Of a stretch of DNA of 40,103 bases, positions 18,266 to 40,103 are shown in pieces (positions within the stretch are counted from its first letter, which is position 1; each line of letters opens with the position of its first letter). This DNA comes from a virus (lineage: Duplodnaviria > Caudoviricetes): positions 1 to 40,103 of the IMG/VR virus record IMGVR_UViG_3300044972_002456, one strand, 5' to 3'. The notes under the pieces were generated by a model. The model made no database searches. It saw only the letters and a program-made list of their open reading frames with translations, and was not told the origin of the DNA. The translations under genes and the position numbers were made by a program.

Positions 18266-18523
18266 TTATTTCTCAATGATTTCTTCAATTATTAACGGGC
18301 ATGCCCATGATTCCCACGGCGTTTTTTTAATTCCTAAAGCCCAATTTTCTGCAGCATCTTCATGCATGTGCAATGAATGATTTCCATAAGCTTCTCTAAA
18401 TCTTTTATCGCCGTCATAAAAATCTATATAATAGATAGAGTCACACTCATAAACTTCTGCACGGCCTGTACCATCTAATTTAGTGTGTATTGATATTAAC
18501 TTAGGCTTAATAATATTCATCAT
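18266..18523 (-). CDS. hypothetical protein
   Basis: ATGA overlap with thyX stop; EDAAENWALG motif. Confidence 0.65.
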   Translation of the reverse strand: MMNIIKPKLISIHTKLDGTGRAEVYECDSIYYIDFYDGDKRFREAYGNHSLHMHEDAAENWALGIKKTPWESWACPLIIEEIIEK

Positions 18524-19197
18524 TCTATGACCTGCAGCATTAAAGGAAATATTGGCAATATCGCAATTGCACAAGCGCGGGCAATATGCATATGTTCTTT
18601 TTGAGTACCGTTAGAAGATCTTAATTCTATATAGTGTAGCCACGATCGTAATGTGCCATTCATATATAACCTAGAAACAGTATTACCTTCAGGAAGCACC
18701 GCGCGAGCTTGTTCTTTTGCAATGCCGTTATCGATAGCCCATTGATATGCTACCTTTGCTTCATGTATAACTGACTGCTGTTTTATCTTCCAGTTATATT
18801 CAAGTTCTGTATCTTCGTTTTCAATACTGTTTTGGCGATTCTTATTATCTTGTAATCTAGCTTCTCTAAATACAAAGTCTAATTCCTTTGTAGGATCAGC
18901 GTATCTCTGTGAAAACTCTTGAAATGAAAAGGATCTATGTCTTAGTATTTGCCTAGCGATATCACGAGTAGTTTCAATCTCTAAACAAACACTAACCATT
19001 TCAAATGGAGACCAATGCTTATTTTTAGCTAGATATTTTAATAGTTTTTCATTCGTATCAACAGTATTTTGATTTGAAGGATTCGACACTCTAGCGCAGT
19101 ATGCAATCAAGTTTGCAAGTTTATTATTCAGATCCATTGGTTCTGCTTGGAAGTGATCTTGCGGAGCTTGACTATAACTAATTAATTTTACGTTCAT
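18520..19197 (-). CDS. thyX: flavin-dependent thymidylate synthase
   Basis: HWSPFE and RHRSFSFQEFSQRY ThyX signature. Confidence 0.95.
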   Translation of the reverse strand: MNVKLISYSQAPQDHFQAEPMDLNNKLANLIAYCARVSNPSNQNTVDTNEKLLKYLAKNKHWSPFEMVSVCLEIETTRDIARQILRHRSFSFQEFSQRYADPTKELDFVFREARLQDNKNRQNSIENEDTELEYNWKIKQQSVIHEAKVAYQWAIDNGIAKEQARAVLPEGNTVSRLYMNGTLRSWLHYIELRSSNGTQKEHMHIARACAIAILPIFPLMLQVIE

Positions 19198-20555: not shown

Positions 20556-20871
20556 CTGGCTTTACTCCAATAGCAAAATTATTATGTTCAAGTGCTTCAA
20601 GTATAATCACCTGAAGCATGTCACCAAGATATGTTTTGAATTCATTTGACTCTAATGTCTTAGTATCCAAATTAGATTCATTAACAACATATTCATACGA
20701 AAATATTATTTCAGCATCAGGATCTTCTAGAGTTGGTTCTGTTAAACATATTTTACCATATGTAACAACTGTGCCAGCATATTCTCCAGTGAGTATCTTA
20801 ATAGAGTCATGATCAGACTCTTTCATATAAGATATCTGTGCATAATCGTATTTTGATATTCTATTATACAT
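20518..20871 (-). CDS. hypothetical protein at the T4 gp40 syntenic position
   Basis: Between uvsX and 41; start overlaps uvsX stop. Confidence 0.65.
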   Translation of the reverse strand: MYNRISKYDYAQISYMKESDHDSIKILTGEYAGTVVTYGKICLTEPTLEDPDAEIIFSYEYVVNESNLDTKTLESNEFKTYLGDMLQVIILEALEHNNFAIGVKPVDTNSHFEKSYN

Positions 20872-21931
20872 CAGTATCACTCTGAAGTACATCTTCAAAT
20901 ACTTCTGCAGGAATTTGAGATCTATACCCAATAGTGTAGTGTTGCTTTACAAATTCTTTAAAGTCTGTATTTTTAAAGATTGGAAGCCAAAATTCTTCTA
21001 ACAAGGTTTGTGCTTCACGAACTTTACCAGAAGTCACTTCACCAGTTGCTGGGTTTATTGCTTCGTACCAACCATTAGAAGGCTTTTGCACATAACCACC
21101 AGCCATAGCAACTTCAAGTAGACCAGAATATTTTTCAATACCGCCTTCCCAAGTTACAGTGATAGGTACTTTAGATTTTTCTTTTACAAATCGCGATTTT
21201 TCTACATTGATAACAAACTCATAACCAGTTACTTCTGTACCAGTTTTATTCTGTCTGCGTCCAAGAATCCAAATATTATCTGCAGAATAATAAATACCCG
21301 TGCCACCACTCACTACTGCTTTAGGAAAAAGCCCGATTTCTTGATACGTGTGATTTACCGCAAGCATTGGAATATCTTTCATAGTCAAATACGGAGTTGA
21401 CATACGAAATAGTCCTTTGAGTGCTTTAGCTCTAGACATATCAGCTACAGATTTTTCATTAATGGTATCTTCTAATTCTTTCTTCGAAGCAAGATTACCA
21501 ATAGAGTCAATTACTATAATAACCTTTTCACCACGTTCAATTACTTCCAATTGATTGATAAGATCAAATTTAAGTTCTTCAACATTAGTAATAGGTGTAT
21601 GCAAAACACGATGCGTTTCAATATCAAATGATTCAAAATACGATTGTGGAGAACCAAATTCAGAATCGTAAAATAGCATAATAGCTTCTGGATATTTTTT
21701 CATATAAGCGCCAGCCATTAGTAGCGCAAATGAAGTTTTGAAATGTTTACTTGGACCAGCAAGTACGGTCATACCTGGGGTAAGTCCACCATCTATAGAT
21801 CCAGATAGTGCAACGTTAATCATAGGCACATCTGTTGTAACCATATCTTTTGAAATAAAGAATTTTGATTTTGAAAGAACTTCAGTATGATCTAGTTTTG
21901 AGTTCTTTCTAAGTTTATCCATTACTGACAT
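20864..21931 (-). CDS. uvsX: RecA-like recombinase
   Basis: AGPSKHFKT, YDSEFG, IDSIGNLASKKE, DMSRAK, GGTG motifs. Confidence 0.95.
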   Translation of the reverse strand: MSVMDKLRKNSKLDHTEVLSKSKFFISKDMVTTDVPMINVALSGSIDGGLTPGMTVLAGPSKHFKTSFALLMAGAYMKKYPEAIMLFYDSEFGSPQSYFESFDIETHRVLHTPITNVEELKFDLINQLEVIERGEKVIIVIDSIGNLASKKELEDTINEKSVADMSRAKALKGLFRMSTPYLTMKDIPMLAVNHTYQEIGLFPKAVVSGGTGIYYSADNIWILGRRQNKTGTEVTGYEFVINVEKSRFVKEKSKVPITVTWEGGIEKYSGLLEVAMAGGYVQKPSNGWYEAINPATGEVTSGKVREAQTLLEEFWLPIFKNTDFKEFVKQHYTIGYRSQIPAEVFEDVLQSDTDV

Positions 21932-21962: not shown

Positions 21963-21991
21963 ATTATATCATTAATTGATCTAATTGTACA
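21963..21991 (-). promoter_or_regulatory. early/sigma70-type promoter TGTACA-N17-TATAAT
   Basis: Motif copy upstream of uvsX. Confidence 0.8.
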
Positions 21992-22013: not shown

Positions 22014-23048
22014 TTATGCAAAGAAGTCTTCTAGTGTTGCAGGTGCGTTTCCGGAAAGGCCAGACCATTTGTGACCTTGCCAGTGTGGATATGATGCTCG
22101 CGATAGATGAACGGACTTTGGCTTTTCCATGTGGGAAAAATCAAGTTCGCCTTTATCATTACTTAGGTACTCAACCCACTCGATGAAGTTGACACTGCCA
22201 TGCGCACACAGCTTTCTCATCTCGTCCTTGAAGATAAGGCGATATCTATTTCGATCTTCCCATGAACCATAAAACGGAGTACCTTTATAATAACCAGTTT
22301 TTGGTAGAACCCGAGATTCGTTTTCGATAGGAAGTAACTCGTATGCATAGACCTTTGCAAGATCGAGTTGGCTAAGTTGTGTATAGTATCTATTCGCTAA
22401 ATCTCGAGTAGCCGCTTCAGGATCAGGCTGACGACAAAGGTGATGACGAATATCGATGTTGCCAAAGTAAAATTCTGCGATCTCGTGGTGTGGTTTAATG
22501 AATGATTGCAAACCCTCCTTGAGTGCACCGTGTAGCGTCTTAAACGGAACGGAGTTGACAAACCAACCAGGACGATACATGCAAATAGCATGGCTGTCGC
22601 CGGCTACAACACGATTTACAGATTCAATCTCACGAATGGTGATTGCAGTATCTTCGATAATTTTTAAGTTATCCCAATCAACCTTGTGCCAGTCAGGATG
22701 GATCTCTCCGGTCATACGAGGCTTTAGCATCTCTGAATATTTTGGATGATCAATCCACAGAGAATATATAGGGCCTTTGATCTTTGAGTACCGAATTAGA
22801 TTATCAATGCTGCCATAATTTTTCATGCCACCAAAGAGATTCAGCGTACCACCCCAATCATTACCATGATAGACGTATACACTATCAAATGCATTTGGAT
22901 CCGGGGCAATATTACCAGTCCGATCTAGATGAACATGACGACAGAGTGCAACGCTCAATTGCTCAGCATAGATTGCAGCCTGCGCCGCACGATGCGAATG
23001 AATGTTAGACGAGATGTTAGTGAATGGAGATGTAATCAGAATGCTCAT
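22014..23048 (-). CDS. putative DNA-modifying enzyme: BGT-like N-domain plus SGNH-like C-domain
   Basis: LNLFGG..IYSLWID resembles T4 BGT INFFGG..IYYLFTD (recalled); VAGDSH, FGNID, SVH resemble SGNH blocks. Confidence 0.5.
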   Translation of the reverse strand: MSILITSPFTNISSNIHSHRAAQAAIYAEQLSVALCRHVHLDRTGNIAPDPNAFDSVYVYHGNDWGGTLNLFGGMKNYGSIDNLIRYSKIKGPIYSLWIDHPKYSEMLKPRMTGEIHPDWHKVDWDNLKIIEDTAITIREIESVNRVVAGDSHAICMYRPGWFVNSVPFKTLHGALKEGLQSFIKPHHEIAEFYFGNIDIRHHLCRQPDPEAATRDLANRYYTQLSQLDLAKVYAYELLPIENESRVLPKTGYYKGTPFYGSWEDRNRYRLIFKDEMRKLCAHGSVNFIEWVEYLSNDKGELDFSHMEKPKSVHLSRASYPHWQGHKWSGLSGNAPATLEDFFA

Positions 23049-23057
23049 ATTTTATTC

Positions 23058-23960
23058 TTAAATATCAAGTGCTACATAAGGTATGTCTTTTTTTGGCCAG
23101 TCGCGATAACTATTTACACGATCGTAGATAGTAGGATCGTTAAGTACCGGTTCCTTACCAACGTTCCAGAAAAGAATGTTTTTACCGGTGTTTTTAGGAA
23201 TGTACTTCCACACCTTACCATCATACGTATCGATGCATGGGAACGGTGGTAGGTTCTTGGCCTTTTCACTTTGTTGGAAAGCCATTGGTTCTGAGATAAC
23301 ATCAGCACGACCAAGTTCGCCAGCTTTCAGGTTACGAGACACAGCAACTGAATGGAACTTGGCATTTGGCCAGGCAATCTGCATTGCTCGCGAAAGAACG
23401 CCTGTTGAGATAGCTACATAGACTTCATCAGGCGGATCAATCTTCGATGCAGCCATTACGATACCTGCAGTAACTAGCTCATGTTTCAGGCCGAGTGGAA
23501 CAAAGAACGCATCTTCCTGAGAATCAGCCCAATCTTTTGCGATCTTGTTTAGATTTGGCATAGCAGCGATACGATGAAACGATGCATCTGCTCCTTGTTC
23601 AATACAACATGCCTGATGGTGAGAGATTGTTTGTGAAGAAGGCATGAACAACTTCACCTTCTTATTATGGCGTTTTGCTACATCGAGAAGAGAAACGCCT
23701 GCAAGTCCAGTACGAGGCTGGACGTATACGATTGTTGACTGACTGATTCTTGAGACGAGGCAATCTCCTCCACGCACCTTCGTACCTGTGATGAGATCGT
23801 CTCGCACACACCGAATGCCATCATGTATAGTTACTACTGGATCAGGATACGGATCTGTCCATGTTGCCGCAAGATTTAGATAATAATCTTTTGCCTCTTG
23901 CCAAGATCTGTATCCTACATCTTGGTTGTATCCATCGACTACGTGCTTATTGTGGCTCAT
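23058..23960 (-). CDS. PLP-dependent enzyme, fold type II, of the kind found in phage base-hypermodification loci
   Basis: VRDDL..GTKVRG (PLP Lys), VAISTG phosphate loop, YDGKVW, LFWNVG. Confidence 0.8.
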   Translation of the reverse strand: MSHNKHVVDGYNQDVGYRSWQEAKDYYLNLAATWTDPYPDPVVTIHDGIRCVRDDLITGTKVRGGDCLVSRISQSTIVYVQPRTGLAGVSLLDVAKRHNKKVKLFMPSSQTISHHQACCIEQGADASFHRIAAMPNLNKIAKDWADSQEDAFFVPLGLKHELVTAGIVMAASKIDPPDEVYVAISTGVLSRAMQIAWPNAKFHSVAVSRNLKAGELGRADVISEPMAFQQSEKAKNLPPFPCIDTYDGKVWKYIPKNTGKNILFWNVGKEPVLNDPTIYDRVNSYRDWPKKDIPYVALDI

Positions 23961-25108
23961 GTCATATTCCTTACTAAAGCTTTGTATTGCTCGACAGAGA
24001 TGCCTGCCTGCTTGAGTATATAGTCATCTGATGGATGAGCAGTCATACCATTAAAGGTCTTGATGAGTCCGAGATCTAGCATCGCACGTTGACGCCCGTA
24101 CGGGTGATCCTTAATTTTACAGGAAGACCAGACAGAGTCAAAACAAAGATGGTTATAGTCTGATCCTGGCTTAACATAGTTCTCGACCCATCTGATAAAG
24201 TCGCAACATACATCTTCTGCATTATACGGGTATGCACCCGTGTCTGCATAAATCTTTTCCATTACCCTATCAAGAAATAGTTCTTTTTTTATTCTATCCG
24301 TGTTGTCTGCTAGATAGGAGATGCACTCGACTGCATTCGTACCATAGTAGAACGGACTCTCAAGATTGCAGTACTCTGGATACCAGTCAGCAATGTCAGC
24401 AACAACCGCTGCATACTGAAACTTGTATTGACGAAGACCATTAGTAACATTCCATGCCAACATCCAATCTCCGATCTCACGAAGATCTCTCTTGGCATTG
24501 TTACCCTGAAGCCACTCAGCAAGGTCACGTGCTAGACGCGGAGCAAACTCGGATAGATAATAGTCGCCACCTTTCTTGTACTTTAAACCAGCAGGTACCT
24601 TAGGGAATGCAGGAAACTGATAACCGACCGATGTAAAAAATGGATGTTGATGAGAGTTCACACGACGAACCATATCTTCGATCGACTTATATTGATATAG
24701 ATGTGGAAGCAGTGTGTTGTGATAACCGGATGGTTTCTTTGAATAGTTAATGCCAGAGCCTGTGACACGGTGAAGAATAAATATGTATAACCATTCTGGT
24801 AAATCAAAGTCGTCATGCTTACCTGTCCAGTCACGGGCGATGTACCCACGCTCCCGTGTGTGGAAGCCTTGTTCCATCTTATGGAAGTAAGGATGCTTAT
24901 CAGTCCAGCCATAGAAAACATCGTTTACGATCTGAGAAAAGCCGGCAAACTTGCGTTCAACAACATCGTACAATTCGACATTCTCGAGAAGATCGTCGTT
25001 CATATTGCTTTCAAGATATGGAACTGTTCCTAGGTTACACTTTGCTTGTTGATCCTTTGCAAGTTCAAAGTACCGAAGATATTCATCATAATATTCTGTT
25101 AGCTTCAC
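23957..25108 (-). CDS. aGPT-Pplase / 5-HMUDK-like helical (HhH glycosylase-fold) DNA base-modifying protein
   Basis: FQYAAVVAD...YGTNA...AEDVCCDF pattern resembles the family C-terminal motifs; operon context. Confidence 0.6.
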   Translation of the reverse strand: MKLTEYYDEYLRYFELAKDQQAKCNLGTVPYLESNMNDDLLENVELYDVVERKFAGFSQIVNDVFYGWTDKHPYFHKMEQGFHTRERGYIARDWTGKHDDFDLPEWLYIFILHRVTGSGINYSKKPSGYHNTLLPHLYQYKSIEDMVRRVNSHQHPFFTSVGYQFPAFPKVPAGLKYKKGGDYYLSEFAPRLARDLAEWLQGNNAKRDLREIGDWMLAWNVTNGLRQYKFQYAAVVADIADWYPEYCNLESPFYYGTNAVECISYLADNTDRIKKELFLDRVMEKIYADTGAYPYNAEDVCCDFIRWVENYVKPGSDYNHLCFDSVWSSCKIKDHPYGRQRAMLDLGLIKTFNGMTAHPSDDYILKQAGISVEQYKALVRNMT

Positions 25109-25120
25109 GTTTTTCTCGAC

Positions 25121-25600
25121 CTATTTTATCCATAAAAACTCCCAAGTAATTCCTGCTTCATCAAACATTTCTTTCGTTATTTCAAATGACTGCATCCAAC
25201 GATCAGTCACTTTATAATCTTCTTCTATTGACATTATTACATGCTTTATTCCAGTTTGAATAACGCCTTTAGCACATTCTGAACAAACCGGTAATCCAAA
25301 AACATATAATGTAGCTCCATCAAGAGAAACGCCAGTATATGTAGCATTATATATTACGTTCATTTCTGCATGAACTACATACTTGTATTTTTGTTCTTTG
25401 GTATGTAGTCTTTCAAAGGTGTCTTTTACATTTCTAGGAAAGCCATTATAACCTTGAGATAATACTTGGCCTTTTTCAGAAACGGCAATCGCACCAATTT
25501 GGCGCGATGGATCCTTTGACCATGTAGATATTTCTTTTGCTAAAGATAAGAATCGAAGATCCCAAATTTTATCGGAATTCCTAATAGGAGCAATATTCAT
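25121..25600 (-). CDS. cd: dCMP deaminase
   Basis: SKDPS, GYNG, HAEMN, PVCSEC zinc motif. Confidence 0.9.
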   Translation of the reverse strand: MNIAPIRNSDKIWDLRFLSLAKEISTWSKDPSRQIGAIAVSEKGQVLSQGYNGFPRNVKDTFERLHTKEQKYKYVVHAEMNVIYNATYTGVSLDGATLYVFGLPVCSECAKGVIQTGIKHVIMSIEEDYKVTDRWMQSFEITKEMFDEAGITWEFLWIK

Positions 25601-26259
25601 TATTTTACCAAATCAAAATGGCGCTCATAAACGTGAAGGTTTTGAACTTGCCAGATAATACTACCAGTGCCAATACTTAGCTGAGTAGCAAGTTGTGTTA
25701 ACACATACTCTTGCCATGCATAATCATTCTTATATCCATATACAACATCGTTAGATCGCATTTGTACAACAGCATATAGTAACTTATTACGAATATAGTA
25801 AGTTACAGCATTAGTGCAAATAAAATCAGATTTTCCATTTTCATCAAACTCAACCCAAATAGAAGGACGATTATAAATCATCGCTGCACGACGACCATCT
25901 GGGTTATTACGTAATTCTCTTAGTACGTTATTATATTGGTTGTAATATTTCTTAGACCAAATAAGAGTACCGTAATTTGAATTGATTTCTCCATGATCAT
26001 TTGACGATAACTGCCACGCTTTTGGTGGACTTCTACCATCATTGAAGATATCATTTATATTTGTGGATTGTGATCTATACCAAGAAATTTCAGAATCAAT
26101 ATATTCTTTATTTACTTGGCCAAAAATTGCTGGTTCATCTGCAATAAACGATGCACCAATAATTTCAATTGTTTTTTGACCGGTTTTATCTAAAGTAAAA
26201 TTTTTATTTTTTAGTTCATCAATAAAGTGTTTGCGAATATCTTTTACTGTGAGATACAT
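25600..26259 (-). CDS. 42: dCMP hydroxymethylase (T4 gp42-like)
   Basis: Colinear similarity to T4 gp42: DKTG.KTIEIIGASF.ADEP, GEINSNYG, DF.CTN, MRSNDVV.G..NDYAWQ (Asp specificity residue), LHVY.RHF. Confidence 0.9.
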   Translation of the reverse strand: MYLTVKDIRKHFIDELKNKNFTLDKTGQKTIEIIGASFIADEPAIFGQVNKEYIDSEISWYRSQSTNINDIFNDGRSPPKAWQLSSNDHGEINSNYGTLIWSKKYYNQYNNVLRELRNNPDGRRAAMIYNRPSIWVEFDENGKSDFICTNAVTYYIRNKLLYAVVQMRSNDVVYGYKNDYAWQEYVLTQLATQLSIGTGSIIWQVQNLHVYERHFDLVK

Positions 26260-26641: not shown

Positions 26642-26803
26642 TTATCTTACTAGGTATTTAATAAGATAAGATTATTATACCACACTTTCTATATAATGTA
26701 CACCTTTTTTTACAGATTATGTGGCGTTTCTTATCTCTTACTATCTACCTTTTTAATAAGATAAGAATATTATACTACGCTTTCTAGTTAATGTACACCT
26801 TTT
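26642..26803 (-). promoter_or_regulatory. two tandem TGTACA-N17-TATAAT promoters (26674-26702, 26769-26797) in a ~95-bp duplicated unit with TTATCTTA/TAAGATAA inverted boxes
   Basis: taataagataaga.tattatac...aatgtacacctttttt occurs twice. Confidence 0.8.
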
Positions 26804-26814
26804 TTTAATTATTT

Positions 26815-27000
26815 TTATACTAATGCGTTAAGCTTATGTACTTGCGATTCGATCAATTGACCAGAGGAATTATACAAATATAATATTTCGTGTACAAGAT
26901 TTTCATTTTGTCTTCGTTGTACAGATTGTTCTATTAGTGCAGTTTGCTGTTTACTTGTGGGTATTGGTACTATATTAATTTCAGATTTTTCTACTTTCAT
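26815..27000 (-). CDS. hypothetical protein
   Basis: 61-aa ORF. Confidence 0.55.
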   Translation of the reverse strand: MKVEKSEINIVPIPTSKQQTALIEQSVQRRQNENLVHEILYLYNSSGQLIESQVHKLNALV

Positions 27001-27059: not shown

Positions 27060-28427
27060 TTAGTTAGAAACTACTGACTGTAACTGCGCAGCTGCCCTTT
27101 CTTCAACCAACTCAGCATAACCTTCTTCGTCCAAATGAGTTACCGCAATCCAAGCGTGAGACATTTCGTCTGCTGTACGACTACCGTCAACTACCCAGAA
27201 ATCTGGATCAGGGTTGTTCGGGTTGTTGGCTGTGTTATCATACCACTGCTTGATTACAAGGGTAGCTCCAACTGGAAGTAACGGAGCCACATCTTCTTCA
27301 TACAAATGACTGTGATGCCATGTTGCACTCCAATTAGAAATTTGACTGATTTGTTCAGTTCTACCTGTTTCAGGATAGTAAATTTCTAAAGAAGCTGCTC
27401 TTAAACGCAAGTGACCATGAGGCTGGAAGCTGTCGATTCTAACCGGATGATCAAATGAATGAAAGCCCTGAGTCATGGCAGTGCCATGTGGAGGAACAAT
27501 CAACTCGCCCTGATTCAATCTGTAAAGTTTTAGATCCTGCTTGTACTTCGCAACTTCTTCGTAGCCTTCAGGATGGAGCCAGATACCGATTTCAACAACG
27601 TTGTCCTCGATCACTGTGCCAGGAGCAGTTGCGCCTACGCCACCTGGGAACATATGAATGTCCCAACGAATTCTGGCATTAGCTGGAAGAGTACGGCACA
27701 CGTTGTCAGGAGCAATCTCGCCCCACTTGCCCATAGCGTATTCAGTCAACATACCAACATCTTCGTACTCGCCGTCAGCATTCATGATTTCTACATTAGA
27801 ATTAGCATGATGCACAACTGCTTTGGCATTACCCGCTGGTTTTACTTGAATCGCTTTAATGCAACGATCGGTTGTCAATCCAGTTTGCACATATGGACGA
27901 TGCCACATGTCGTTGCCCAGAGCAGGAACGTCAATTGGTGCAGAGTCTAGAATCAGACTTGGCGCACCAAACTGAGCAGCGAAGGTCCACTCATCTGCCG
28001 CTGGTAGATCAGCAACGGGGTGGCTGCGATCTCCCCAATCACCTTCGGGAGCACCTTGTGCGACCCATTGAGTAATTGTATTGATTTCTTCATCAGACAG
28101 ACGCCAGTCGCCTTGCAAATCCTGAATACCAATATGATCGTCATAAGAGTAAGGAGGCATTTCTTTGTTAGCAACTCTCATACTAACTAGAGGCGCCCAA
28201 GGACGAACTTGTTCATAGCTTGTTAATTGCATTGGGCCGATAGCACCTTCTCGGTGACACACTACGCAGTTATCTGTGATAATCTGCGCAACATGATCGG
28301 CATATGTAATCTGACTGTCAATTACTGACAAATCAGATTGTGCTTGAGCGGTTATGCCCAGCATTGTGAATGTAGCAGTAGCTACACCACGGTACACATT
28401 CTTTAAGTTAAAACGTCGATTTTTCAA
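27060..28427 (-). CDS. exported c-type cytochrome fused to a copper type II (PHM/DBH-like) monooxygenase domain
   Basis: Signal peptide ending AQA; CVVCH heme motif, MPP axial Met; VVHH, DIHM, PHGH, DEM copper ligands; TTG start with AAGGAG. Confidence 0.8.
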   Translation of the reverse strand: MKNRRFNLKNVYRGVATATFTMLGITAQAQSDLSVIDSQITYADHVAQIITDNCVVCHREGAIGPMQLTSYEQVRPWAPLVSMRVANKEMPPYSYDDHIGIQDLQGDWRLSDEEINTITQWVAQGAPEGDWGDRSHPVADLPAADEWTFAAQFGAPSLILDSAPIDVPALGNDMWHRPYVQTGLTTDRCIKAIQVKPAGNAKAVVHHANSNVEIMNADGEYEDVGMLTEYAMGKWGEIAPDNVCRTLPANARIRWDIHMFPGGVGATAPGTVIEDNVVEIGIWLHPEGYEEVAKYKQDLKLYRLNQGELIVPPHGTAMTQGFHSFDHPVRIDSFQPHGHLRLRAASLEIYYPETGRTEQISQISNWSATWHHSHLYEEDVAPLLPVGATLVIKQWYDNTANNPNNPDPDFWVVDGSRTADEMSHAWIAVTHLDEEGYAELVEERAAAQLQSVVSN

Positions 28428-36521: not shown

Positions 36522-36755
36522 ATCAATTTATAATACCATTATATACCTGCTAAATGATAATGTACAATTTATTTTTTGTAATAGAATCAATAACTTAGAA
36601 AGGGGTTATCCTAAGTTATTGATTTATAAGGAAATAAGAATTGTATCAAATTGTAACGAACGTAAAATAAAAATACTAATCAAATCAATAACTTATAAAA
36701 CCGCTTCAGAGGCCACCACGATCCACTGGAGACCATTCGCCTGGAGGTGGTATGG
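36522..36755 (-). repeat. promoter cassette copy 3 (promoter 36538-36566 plus three IHF-consensus sites)
   Basis: Sites at 36585, 36612 (inverted), 36683; distal part overlaps 3' end of upstream CDS. Confidence 0.9.
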
Positions 36756-37086
36756 ACCTAATGGACCTATTAAGGAAGTCTTTTGATGCGTCCTGGCCAG
36801 GTATCTTGCCACGTGAATAGGCCACCAAAAAAGAGGCATAGTTAATAAGGTCTTTGGCCGAGTCTTCAATGGATTCATAATTTGGGTTATAATTCGGATC
36901 TGACTCCATGGCTTCAATAACAGACCAAAGTCTTAGAACTTTAGCATGAATAATATCCATAATTGAAGCAACACCACGCGGATAATAGTCAGCTTGGACT
37001 ATTCGTGAATTTGGATTCTGATAGTCATTAGATTTCTTAATTTGAATTTCAGCACATTCAGATAAAACTTTTAGCGATTCTTTCAT
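36706..37086 (-). CDS. nucleotide modification associated domain 1 (Nmad1/DUF1599-like, MazG-fold) protein
   Basis: KKSNDY...K..RL...ESIEDSAKDLINYA pattern. Confidence 0.7.
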   Translation of the reverse strand: MKESLKVLSECAEIQIKKSNDYQNPNSRIVQADYYPRGVASIMDIIHAKVLRLWSVIEAMESDPNYNPNYESIEDSAKDLINYASFLVAYSRGKIPGQDASKDFLNRSIRSIPPPGEWSPVDRGGL

Positions 37087-37109: not shown

Positions 37110-37138
37110 ATTATACCACATTTTTTATAAATTGTACA
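37110..37138 (-). promoter_or_regulatory. early/sigma70-type promoter TGTACA-N17-TATAAT overlapping end of upstream CDS
   Basis: Exact motif and spacing. Confidence 0.7.
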
Positions 37139-37542
37139 CCATCAAAATTATATATTCCTTCTAAGTAATAGTCACCAGTTTTTCTATCACCAATAAAGAT
37201 ATAAAGCTTATTAGGATACTTTCTCCATTTTTCTGAAGCAGCTGCATTTGCGCGCTTGAGCACGTACGGCACAAAATATTCGCCTTCAGTGACCTTTACT
37301 TCAATAGCATCACCACCAAACCGAAGAGGCTCAAACAAGTCTTTATATGGTCTAGTATCATCAACATATCCTTGTTGTAATAAAAATACTTCTGCAGCTA
37401 AACCATACATACTTGTAATTTTGATTTCTTCTAATGGTCTTCCGTGTCGAGTAGATTCTTTCGAATATATTTCTAAAGCTTCTCTTTCTGCTCTCATTTC
37501 TAAAGCAGAGATGTTGACATCTGTGTTTATATTAAATTTCAT
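37111..37542 (-). CDS. putative PD-(D/E)xK nuclease
   Basis: GLAAE helix, YKDL, IEVK motif; ATGA overlap with primase-like gene. Confidence 0.55.
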   Translation of the reverse strand: MKFNINTDVNISALEMRAEREALEIYSKESTRHGRPLEEIKITSMYGLAAEVFLLQQGYVDDTRPYKDLFEPLRFGGDAIEVKVTEGEYFVPYVLKRANAAASEKWRKYPNKLYIFIGDRKTGDYYLEGIYNFDGVQFIKNVV

Positions 37543-38471
37543 AGATTGCAATAAACAAACTCTAAAGCTCGTTCTGCCTCCTTGTCCAATGGTCTATTTG
37601 AATACCAATTTCCAGTTTCTAAATCAAGTTCTTTACAAAGTTCTACTACTTCATGAACAGTAATCGGATATTCTTGTTTTATTGCATTGGCTGATATTGA
37701 CACCATCAGCTGATACATCTTATGATACCATCCAGTATCAGATATAGTTTTATATTCAGCAATAAGTTTTTTGTTAACAAATGGACAATCGCGATATGAT
37801 GTCCACCGAATAGATCTATTCTCTAATTGATCTTTACGATGCTGAATTATTTTTTTCTGCATTTCTTCAGGAAGACTGTCGAATAACGTATTGCCAACTT
37901 TCTTTTCTATAAATGGATGTTTCAATAAAAGTTGGTCAACATCAATGCTTGTACCTTCACGCTTAAAAATAAAATTGTTAGAGTTATCATACTTAGCGGG
38001 AATATAATACATTCTCGATAAATCTTTAGTTTGTATATCTCCCATTGATTCGAGTTCTGTATTAAGAGCAAACCAAAAATGTCTAATTTTATCAGCTTGA
38101 ATATGTTTGTTTAGTTCAAAGACAAGCCTAAATTTTGGTTGCGCAATTGTAGAACTTGCTGTTGAGTAACAAATAAACTTCCAATCAGTAATCTTATTAT
38201 ACATTAATTCTTGCAAAGTTTCCATCGTACAATTTAAACTATCAACATCAACTGCTGCCCATCCTCCCCAAGCAACAACGTTTTTATTTGCACGAGTAGT
38301 ATCTTTTACGTAGTAGGCTGGTGAAATAAGTTGAGCAGATTTTTTATCTTTTCTTTTGACTTCAGATAAATTGTAAAGTAATTGCTCAAACTCATCGAAG
38401 CTAGAAAGATTCATGCTTCGATGAGTTTTGTTATCAAATATTGAATTAAAAAGTGTAAGGCAAATGTCCAT
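37539..38471 (-). CDS. AEP-superfamily primase-like protein
   Basis: AVDVD, YSTASS, KFRLVF, D..TKDLSRMYYIP motifs; helical C-terminus. Confidence 0.6.
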   Translation of the reverse strand: MDICLTLFNSIFDNKTHRSMNLSSFDEFEQLLYNLSEVKRKDKKSAQLISPAYYVKDTTRANKNVVAWGGWAAVDVDSLNCTMETLQELMYNKITDWKFICYSTASSTIAQPKFRLVFELNKHIQADKIRHFWFALNTELESMGDIQTKDLSRMYYIPAKYDNSNNFIFKREGTSIDVDQLLLKHPFIEKKVGNTLFDSLPEEMQKKIIQHRKDQLENRSIRWTSYRDCPFVNKKLIAEYKTISDTGWYHKMYQLMVSISANAIKQEYPITVHEVVELCKELDLETGNWYSNRPLDKEAERALEFVYCNL

Positions 38472-38874
38472 GGTTGTCTTCATGATTAGGTGCAATCCAA
38501 CCAGCAGGTTTAATAAGATCTGGCAATCCCAATGGATTAGGCCTTTCTGGTTTTACGCCAGGAACCTTCGACATATTTGCTTCAAGTACTTTATCCCAAG
38601 CTTTATAAGCATCAACACCAAATGCATCAAGTGTGCCAATTGCTACTACGCACAAATCAATTAATCCATCAACAATTTCTTCAGCGTCTTTACTATAAAT
38701 CGCGTTTTGTGTTTCAAGTAGTTCTTCATTAAGAAACTTCATACGAAAATGTAAAAATTTTTGAAGAGACTCTTTACTTCCATCAGTGTTAACACGCAAT
38801 TTATTATTCACCCAGTCATTCACGCCGTACTTGGCATGCATTGCTTCTATATCGCTTACCCAATCTTTACTCAT
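38446..38874 (-). CDS. MazG-like NTP pyrophosphohydrolase
   Basis: EELLE...EIVDGLIDL...V.EANMSK, DLIKPAGW. Confidence 0.85.
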   Translation of the reverse strand: MSKDWVSDIEAMHAKYGVNDWVNNKLRVNTDGSKESLQKFLHFRMKFLNEELLETQNAIYSKDAEEIVDGLIDLCVVAIGTLDAFGVDAYKAWDKVLEANMSKVPGVKPERPNPLGLPDLIKPAGWIAPNHEDNHGHLPYTF

Positions 38875-39244: not shown

Positions 39245-40103
39245 TTAACTAAAAAAATCTTCGATTGAAACTTTCTCTTGAGTAGACCAACCAATAGCGT
39301 CTAGAATTGGCGTGATAGGATCAAGGAAAGTTTTTTCAAACTGCATTCCATAGTCTATATACTTATTGAGCTGAATTTCTGGAGGTAAGTACATTGGAAA
39401 CGATATAACATTTTCTCTAATTGGATTAGGAGTTTTTAGATAGCAAAACTTTATCTTATCACTGTTTTTAATTAGAACATATTTTTTTTCTAGGTTCTTA
39501 TCGGCAATACATTTGTTATAAAGCAAACTTCCACGTACGTGAATTGGTGTGCCTTTTGTGTATATTGTAGCTTTGTTCTTCCACTTATTGATATCACTTA
39601 CGCCACGTGGAAACGAAATTTCTTCAGGTGGCAAACTATAAAAATATTTCTTAAAATCAGAAATTGCTTTTTGAGTATCAGATTGAGACCCAGTCATAAT
39701 CACTTTGAATATATCTCTTAGTGCAGTTCGAACTTCTGATGGAGTTGAAGACTTAATAGCTTCAATGCCCATGATCTTTAATTTTGGTTCAGCGTATTGC
39801 ACACCTTCATTATTGTGCACGTTCAAAATATATCTTTTCTTTGCTGTCCAGATACCACGATCAGCTATAGCTTCTCTAGCCATAACCATCCTGTTATCAT
39901 ATCCATTCATCATTTCAAATAATTTTGCATACGCGTTTTCAAATATTGGTTCAAAGTGGTCAGTGCAGATTTTATTAAGAAATGCGACTGGTTCAACAGG
40001 ATCGAACTTAGATACAAGTTTTCCAAAATCAACGTAAAGAGAATCAGTATCGATAGCAATAACATAATCAACCTCCTGGGTTTTTAATATTTTATTCATT
40101 TCA
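39245..40103 (-). CDS. 43: family B DNA polymerase (T4 gp43), C-terminal part; 5' end outside window
   Basis: DTDS motif C, AKKRY, GIEAIKSSTP, TPIHVRG, C-terminal clamp-binding SIEDFF. Confidence 0.95.
   Translation of the reverse strand, partial: EMNKILKTQEVDYVIAIDTDSLYVDFGKLVSKFDPVEPVAFLNKICTDHFEPIFENAYAKLFEMMNGYDNRMVMAREAIADRGIWTAKKRYILNVHNNEGVQYAEPKLKIMGIEAIKSSTPSEVRTALRDIFKVIMTGSQSDTQKAISDFKKYFYSLPPEEISFPRGVSDINKWKNKATIYTKGTPIHVRGSLLYNKCIADKNLEKKYVLIKNSDKIKFCYLKTPNPIRENVISFPMYLPPEIQLNKYIDYGMQFEKTFLDPITPILDAIGWSTQEKVSIEDFFS

Follow-up and report, generated by a model that had tools for sequence, protein, structure and literature searches.

Two systems are among the closest described counterparts of the locus analysed here. 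One is the beta-glucosyltransferase (BGT) of phage T4, of which we take the N70-x-F72-GG loop to grip or flip 5-hydroxymethylcytosine (hmC) and Asp100 to be the catalytic base. The other is the hypermodification of thymidine; in the literature that we searched the decorations described for hmC are sugars, whereas amino-acid and amine decorations are described for thymine and follow a kinase step. The thymidine route, as present in phages M6, ViI, PaMx11 and phiW-14, combines 5-HMUDK, AADT (aGPT-Pplase2) and a PLP enzyme, and its AADT transferase acts on a phosphate leaving group that is made by the kinase (PMC8989533). For instance, gp46 of PaMx11 is a glycine:DNA transferase in which a cysteine attacks C6 and a glutamate and a threonine hold a metal at O4 (PMC11472151 and PMC8989533). 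The Aeromonas phages 44RR2.8t, 31 and 25 are described in PMC2993671 as having gene 42 and no T4 glucosyltransferase.

The window, i.e. the whole stretch of 40,103 nucleotides that was analysed, represents part of a T4-like phage genome (40 kb, completeness 24%). It encodes on its minus strand, at 22014..23048, a two-domain protein of 344 amino acids (model pLDDT 95.2), in which a BGT-like N-domain (residues 1-140; 22629..23048, -) is followed by an SGNH domain (residues 141-324; 22077..22628, -) and by the C-terminal residues NAPATLEDFFA (22014..22049, -), which resemble the clamp-binding tail of gp43. A first-pass annotation had reported this reading frame with its motifs, all of which are present, and the chimera of a BGT-like front and an SGNH fold is real. 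Single-sequence searches with the 344-aa protein gave no Pfam or PDB sequence match and the family profile gave no meaningful match among PDB sequences; over residues 1-321 the protein matches two PHROGs of unknown function. Homologues are common, 1,269 proteins having been retained out of 3,055 candidates, and the family comprises 405 representatives upon clustering at 50% identity. Conservation was scored in an alignment of 125 sequences, namely the window's protein, seven close homologues and 117 of the 118 representatives that form the 300-400 aa class among the 150 listed (P0130, which matched residues 1-191 only, was left out). In the literature searched, mainly main texts outside subscription journals, we found no paper that describes the family and no SGNH enzyme that has a DNA base as substrate; the term SGNH is absent from the main texts of PMC13326640, PMC13458397 and bioRxiv 2023.12.21.572611, and the family is not named in the Aeromonas portions of PMC8056088.

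As judged from profile comparisons, the N-domain is a homologue of the N-terminal acceptor domain of BGT. The first-pass annotation had proposed such a relationship on the basis of T4 letters (DVNDYDRLIVV, INFFGGKPN and AKYKSKIYYLFTD), which agree with the T4 record NC_000866 from which we took the BGT sequence (b-gt, NP_049658; PF09198), and HMM alignments uphold the proposal. In a BLASTP comparison with T4 BGT alone the match is weak (15 of 51 residues identical, E 0.007), whereas with profiles it is clear. The family profile aligned by hhalign with BGT at 81% (E 1.2e-5), residues 1-98 falling onto BGT 1-98, and a profile of the N-domain only at 94% (E 1.4e-7), whereas the highest values that decoys reached were 7.6% (120 real ones) and 2.1% (80 shuffled ones). 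With the same N-domain profile BGT came out on top of 1,344 ranked sequences (1,042 ORFs from the loci, 300 shuffles, BGT itself and the phage 25 protein) with E 5e-4, the runner-up having E 0.21. The Pfam model PF09198 weakly matches three of the 125 family members (best E 0.011). Conserved in the domain are S18-H19, G62 and the N70-x-F72-G-G loop, within which the positions of the BGT base-flipping residues are kept as Asn70 in 120/125 and as Phe or Tyr at 72 in 103/125. The annotation had also pointed to the catalytic Asp100, and here the window's protein does have an aspartate at the equivalent position but the family has it in 27 of 125 members; the catalytic base of BGT is therefore not a family trait, and a conserved Asp100 was rejected. 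A second Rossmann domain for the binding of UDP-glucose was not found, residues 140-324 being SGNH and the profile of the C-domain missing BGT. The likeness to BGT thus lies in the first ~100 residues with their loop, in the hmC-making phage background and in the place of the window's gene upstream of uvsX, as in T4, and the difference in the SGNH domain that stands where BGT has its UDP-glucose domain and in the variable Asp100 position. BGT is absent among the matches listed in four fold searches with the whole model, because SGNH proteins filled these lists, an absence that does not speak for a different fold; an ESM Atlas search with residues 1-140 yielded no usable match.

For the C-terminal half, the annotation had seen no obvious UDP-sugar domain and SGNH-like motifs in its place, which agrees with the predicted model: Foldseek assigns residues ~140-324 to the SGNH fold (E 7.9e-7), and VIA-align superimposes 160-170 residues with Z 13-14 and an rmsd of about 3 Å (in one search Z 13.4 and rmsd 3.1 with 170 residues aligned). 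Most of the top structural matches are esterases, and PatB, OatA and the OSK domain of Oskar (Z 11.3) are among the VIA matches. Residues G150-D151-S152-H153, T171, D199, H203, R246, R266, E308 and H314 are invariant in all 125 sequences, down to ~30% identity, and S152 sits after the first SGNH strand in the model. The three motifs that had been read as SGNH blocks (VAGDSH, FGNID and SVH) are borne out in the fold, in the G-D-S of block I and in the histidine of block V, i.e. S152 and H314 in 125/125, which are the features shared with the superfamily (GDSL-2 esterases, PatB, OatA). They depart from it in block III, which reads G196-N197-I198-D199 against a canonical G-x-N-D, the asparagine being shifted by one, and in the acid of the D-x-x-H motif, which is missing (position 311 is R, Q or K); the fusion to a DNA-enzyme domain is a further difference. 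The invariant E308, at -6 from His314, may serve as the acid in place of the missing aspartate. Position 169 is a glycine in 70/125 and a phenylalanine in the window's protein. Since active SGNH families include dyads and other oxyanion holes (PMC9487903), the variants in blocks III and V are not an argument for a dead site, and an inactive domain was rejected because G-D-S-H and His314 are invariant in 125/125.

The gene had further been described as a domain swap in the beta-gt slot beside uvsX, which is only partly right. It does lie upstream of uvsX (20864..21931, -) in the window, but a promoter-like site TGTACA-N17-TATAAT (21963..21991, -; a consensus match only) lies between the two genes, ahead of uvsX, and uvsX comes next after the gene in six of 28 sequence clusters (20 of 140 loci, some contigs having been entered twice). 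On the latter ground uvsX was rejected as a conserved partner and is regarded as a neighbour in the window. The sequence TGTACA-N16/17-TATAAT occurs four times in the window, namely at 21963-21991 and three times at 26674-26896 (-), the total number of sites being at chance level.

The genes on the other side form a cassette in the order hydroxymethylase, deaminase, transferase candidate, PLP enzyme and, last, the gene of the SGNH chimera. The dCMP hydroxymethylase (25600..26259, -) is of the gp42 type, 55% identical to T4 gp42 with a KNDYAWQ motif, and has an aspartate at the position of T4 Asp179, as in the cytosine type; a pathway via hmU, with a dUMP hydroxymethylase, was rejected for that reason. 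It is followed by a dCMP deaminase (25121..25600, -). Elsewhere in the window a flavin-dependent thymidylate synthase, ThyX, is encoded (18520-19197, -), so that the supply of dTMP is separate from the gp42-type enzyme. The next gene of the cassette (23957..25108, -) encodes a 383-aa helical protein, a candidate transferase of glycosylase fold that we denote type T1, with an invariant E298-D299-x-x-C302. The best of 48,161 chains for its model was gp46 of PaMx11 (8z2m; 207 residues aligned, rmsd 4.1) with a VIA Z of 9.5, which is middling for a helical protein, and the matches ranked below gp46 were also of the HhH type or glycosylase fold. Foldseek gave nothing at E<=0.001 for this model (E 2.5), and the T1 profile, which is diluted by fused rows, did not match M6 gp51. 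The spacing of the invariant residues equals that of E243-T244-x-x-C247 in PaMx11 gp46, and the replacement of Thr by Asp may be the counterpart of the Asn-to-Asp exchange by which gp42 becomes cytosine-specific. The PLP-dependent (PALP-type) enzyme of 300 aa (23058..23960, -) matches PALP with E 0.0058, below the Pfam cut-off, phrog_7093 with E 6e-39, and M6 gp52 weakly (E 2e-6 over 37 aa). A lysine motif G[TS]KxR is present in 93 of 102 sequences, and the enzyme likely trims an amino-acid adduct.

Some other genes of the window were noted in passing. Two ORFs of unknown function (126 and 146 aa) and a MazG-like nucleotide pyrophosphohydrolase are located at 36706-37086, 37111-37551 and 38446-38874 (-), and relatives of the 126-aa ORF and of the MazG-like ORF are found near gp42 in many of the loci that carry the chimera. 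A 455-aa protein (27060-28427, -) has a start that resembles a signal peptide, a CxxCH heme motif and, by eye, a second half like a copper monooxygenase; it has weak matches to cytochrome c and is unusual for a phage.

The genome context of the gene was compared over loci taken from viral scans (the best 80 of at least 593 and the best 80 of at least 569 matches), a genome scan (13 loci) and three cultured phages, which together supplied 161 loci where the gene is full-length (including contigs that were entered twice); at 70% identity these fall into 42 clusters. In 28 of the clusters at least 3 kb of sequence flank the gene on either side, and 26 of the 28 have a transferase with E-x-x-x-C at the locus, as judged with profiles that were seeded from the same loci. 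Type T1 is found in 17 clusters, with the PLP enzyme alongside in 16 of these, and a second type, T2, in 10, with an inositol-1-phosphate synthase alongside in nine; one cluster has both types. T2 matches PF18723 (above the cut-off in three of four tested), and its cassettes also contain a short ORF that resembles a phosphatase (D-x-D-G motif, no Pfam match) and often an FkbM methyltransferase. Cassettes of this second type, with the inositol-1-phosphate synthase, the phosphatase-like ORF, FkbM and the PF18723-type transferase, are seen at loci L098:7708-11074, L166:7204-9962, L169:5164-9342 and others. They point to an inositol-bearing cytosine. The hydroxymethylase ORFs that are linked to the gene have an aspartate at the T4 Asp179 position in 69 out of 69 cases.

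Fifteen homologues are long, ten being fused to T1, two to T2 and three to neither (two pairs are 77-90% alike), and the fusions carry a long charged linker. A tree of the protein with 44 rows shows seven switches of the partner label, at least five of them forced by supported branches, with two long branches that are unsure. As partner type and supply genes swap while the gene stays, the step performed by the SGNH chimera would be independent of the nucleophile. The 5-hmU DNA kinase (PF18748) was found in none of nine sequences (eight carrier records and the 40-kb window, three complete and six incomplete), M6 and ViI being positive, although PF18748 might have overlooked a more divergent kinase; conversely, the profile of the SGNH-chimera family had no match in M6, ViI and T4. 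The system thus resembles the hypermodification of thymidine in its hydroxymethyl-pyrimidine, its glycosylase-fold E-x-x-x-C transferase, its PLP enzyme and its gene fusions, and differs in being directed at cytosine (gp42 Asp179) and in having the SGNH chimera where no kinase was found.

Several additional genes recur in or near these cassettes. In 31 of the first 80 loci, T1 and the PLP gene have between them the gene of a second helical protein with E-D-x-x-C (~330 aa; e.g. L018:477-1484 and L155:7372-8364), which the window's cassette lacks. The cassette region of 23 among the first 80 loci includes a 141-aa ORF of the uracil-DNA-glycosylase superfamily (E 0.0015; L031:933-1358), and in several cassettes a divergent C5 cytosine methyltransferase comes after the gene (L162:4619-5833, L166:11038-12234). 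In small phages, i.e. Erythrobacter phage R6L and Microcystis phage Mae-JY30 (L085, L086), relatives of the window's PLP enzyme bear the annotation of a DNA methylase or are joined to one.

The C-terminal tail had been likened to that of gp43, and within the window the comparison holds, TLEDFFA standing against the SIEDFFS of the window's own gp43 (C-terminal part of the DNA polymerase, 39245..40099, -, which ends in QEKVSIEDFFS). Over the family, however, the tail is limited to a clade: a strict LEDFF-type pattern marks nearly all close homologues (117/120) but few distant representatives (4/118, or 16/118 with a loose pattern). A slightly wider L-x-x-F-F pattern occurs in 10/12 gp43 proteins, 68/124 family members, 6/26 T2 transferases and 9/514 other ORFs. 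Going by this resemblance in sequence, the tail would likely tether the proteins of the window's clade to the sliding clamp. In T4 it is the alpha-glucosyltransferase and not BGT that co-purifies with gp45 (PMC13216743), so that a clamp tail is not a trait of BGT.

The explanation that we favour, with about an even chance of being right, is that the SGNH chimera O-acylates the 5-hydroxymethyl of hmC in freshly synthesized phage DNA and thereby creates a leaving group, in replacement of the 5-hmU DNA kinase. In such a mechanism gp42 would supply hm-dCMP, the N70-x-F72-GG loop would grip or flip hmC, as in BGT, and Ser152 would carry an acyl group to the hydroxymethyl oxygen (acetyl from acetyl-CoA is a guess). 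Cys302 of the 383-aa enzyme would then attack C6, expel the carboxylate and add the nucleophile, in parallel to what AADT does with phosphate (PMC8989533 and PMC11472151). The nucleophile would in the window probably be an amino acid, to be trimmed by the PLP enzyme, and in other phages probably inositol, and in the window's clade the LEDFF tail would likely hold the enzyme at the sliding clamp. Activation by O-acylation is the simplest account because two kinds of transferase and two kinds of supply kit share, and fuse to, one constant partner and no kinase was found. We counted against it that phage 25 of Aeromonas and phage PTm1 of Tenacibaculum keep the gene with its Ser and His and lack T1 and T2, that the link between T1 and AADT is one of Z 9.5 with a Foldseek E of 2.5 and a profile that failed to match M6 gp51, and that blocks III and V are non-canonical and no acyl donor is evident. 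A carboxylate is, moreover, a weaker leaving group than phosphate. The first-pass annotation had proposed an acyltransferase or deacylase that acts on modified cytosine. The SGNH fold, the Ser and His and the dCMP hydroxymethylase fit its acyl-enzyme directed at modified cytosine, whereas a deacylase is less likely than a biosynthetic role and the cassette, with its AADT-like enzyme and PLP enzyme, had been missed.

Cultured phages carry the gene as well. The 43 records that matched comprise 19 of the Aeromonas 44RR type (with a T2 fusion), 21 ranked with phage 25 (including two of Stenotrophomonas phage IME13; details are given for phage 25 itself) and three of Tenacibaculum. ORF233c of 44RR2.8t and 31 and ORF225c of phage 25 (PHROG 17781 and 13881, of unknown function) are full-length homologues with 28-33% identity and a TM of 0.85, and gp42 is Asp-type in 44RR and phage 25, but neither of these has the T1 or PLP genes of the window. 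In 44RR the T2 fusion is found beside a sodium:sugar symporter: in 44RR2.8t (L001:5408-9388) a sodium:solute symporter that is closest to vSGLT (E 3e-103) lies directly ahead of the SGNH::T2 fusion, the genome has no inositol synthase, and we infer that the acceptor of the transferase is imported via the symporter. In phage 25 (L002:4776-8047) the 44RR module after motA is replaced by a UDP-galactopyranose mutase, a BGT-like glycosyltransferase and the SGNH gene, which suggests galactofuranosyl-hmC. The glycosyltransferase is BGT-like by Atlas alone (scores 0.95-0.97), with no match to T4 BGT in a pairwise comparison and none among PDB sequences. Both T1 and T2 are absent genome-wide in phage 25 and PTm1, whose SGNH proteins have Ser and His intact and diverge in the otherwise conserved loops LPKTGYYKG and MEKPKSVH.

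These phages bear on a possible, if rather unlikely, alternative, namely that the SGNH enzyme comes in after the transferase or glycosyltransferase and acylates the finished adduct (an amine, inositol or the hydroxyl of a sugar), or that it caps residual hmC in the form of a stable ester. Since the family can work in phage 25 and PTm1 without a transferase, and with the two loops altered, terminal acylation is supported at least there, and in phage 25 the mutase and the BGT-like glycosyltransferase adjoin the gene; in addition, SGNH enzymes O-acetylate carbohydrates (PMC9487903) and gp48 of PaMx11 acetylates the final amine (PMC8989533). The same order of events would, however, leave the transferases without an activating step, no kinase having been found, and would require that one enzyme takes both amine and inositol after repeated swaps of partner. 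Activation and terminal acylation can both hold, in different clades.

Ser152 might also carry a group other than a simple acyl, i.e. an aminoacyl from a charged donor or a phosphate, the adduct then arising by transfer or rearrangement together with the cysteine enzyme. The non-canonical blocks III and V and the conserved R201, R206, R246 and R266 suggest an anionic donor, and a tRNA-dependent modification of adenine in DNA has been reported (PMC13219725). We consider this quite improbable, because an aminoacyl route misfits the inositol cassettes and the conserved arginines may simply bind DNA. To our knowledge there is no SGNH phosphotransferase, which we counted against the phosphate variant. 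Very unlikely is a hydrolase that deacylates a modified base or nucleotide (for editing, unmasking or precursor supply): esterases make up most of the top structural matches, as they do most SGNH proteins, but no acyl-adding gene recurs in the cassettes, so that nothing evident would make its substrate, and the fold cannot separate esterase from transferase, PatB and OatA being among the matches. A non-catalytic reader or scaffold that presents hmC to the transferase, for which the match to the Oskar OSK domain (an SGNH fold without enzyme activity; Z 11.3) and the long charged linker of the fusions would speak, is barely credible with G-D-S-H and His314 invariant in 125/125 down to ~30% identity.

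Taken to the level of the family, activation of hmC by O-acylation would mean that a widespread SGNH enzyme does without a kinase and that interchangeable cysteine transferases add amino-acid-derived or inositol groups, a generalization that we hold at slightly less than even confidence. If true, it would establish a novel type of acyltransferase, acting on DNA bases, and a novel class of cytosine hypermodifications that are not sugars, in cultured Aeromonas phages. Such an enzyme, by acylating 5hmC in DNA, could also serve as a tool for labelling next to BGT. The old question of how hmC is protected in phages 44RR, 31 and 25 of Aeromonas (PMC2993671) is made testable, and the SGNH-chimera family, which counts 405 clusters when grouped at 50% identity, points to bases not yet described in the T4-like phages that abound in aquatic habitats, and to a third route of decoration.
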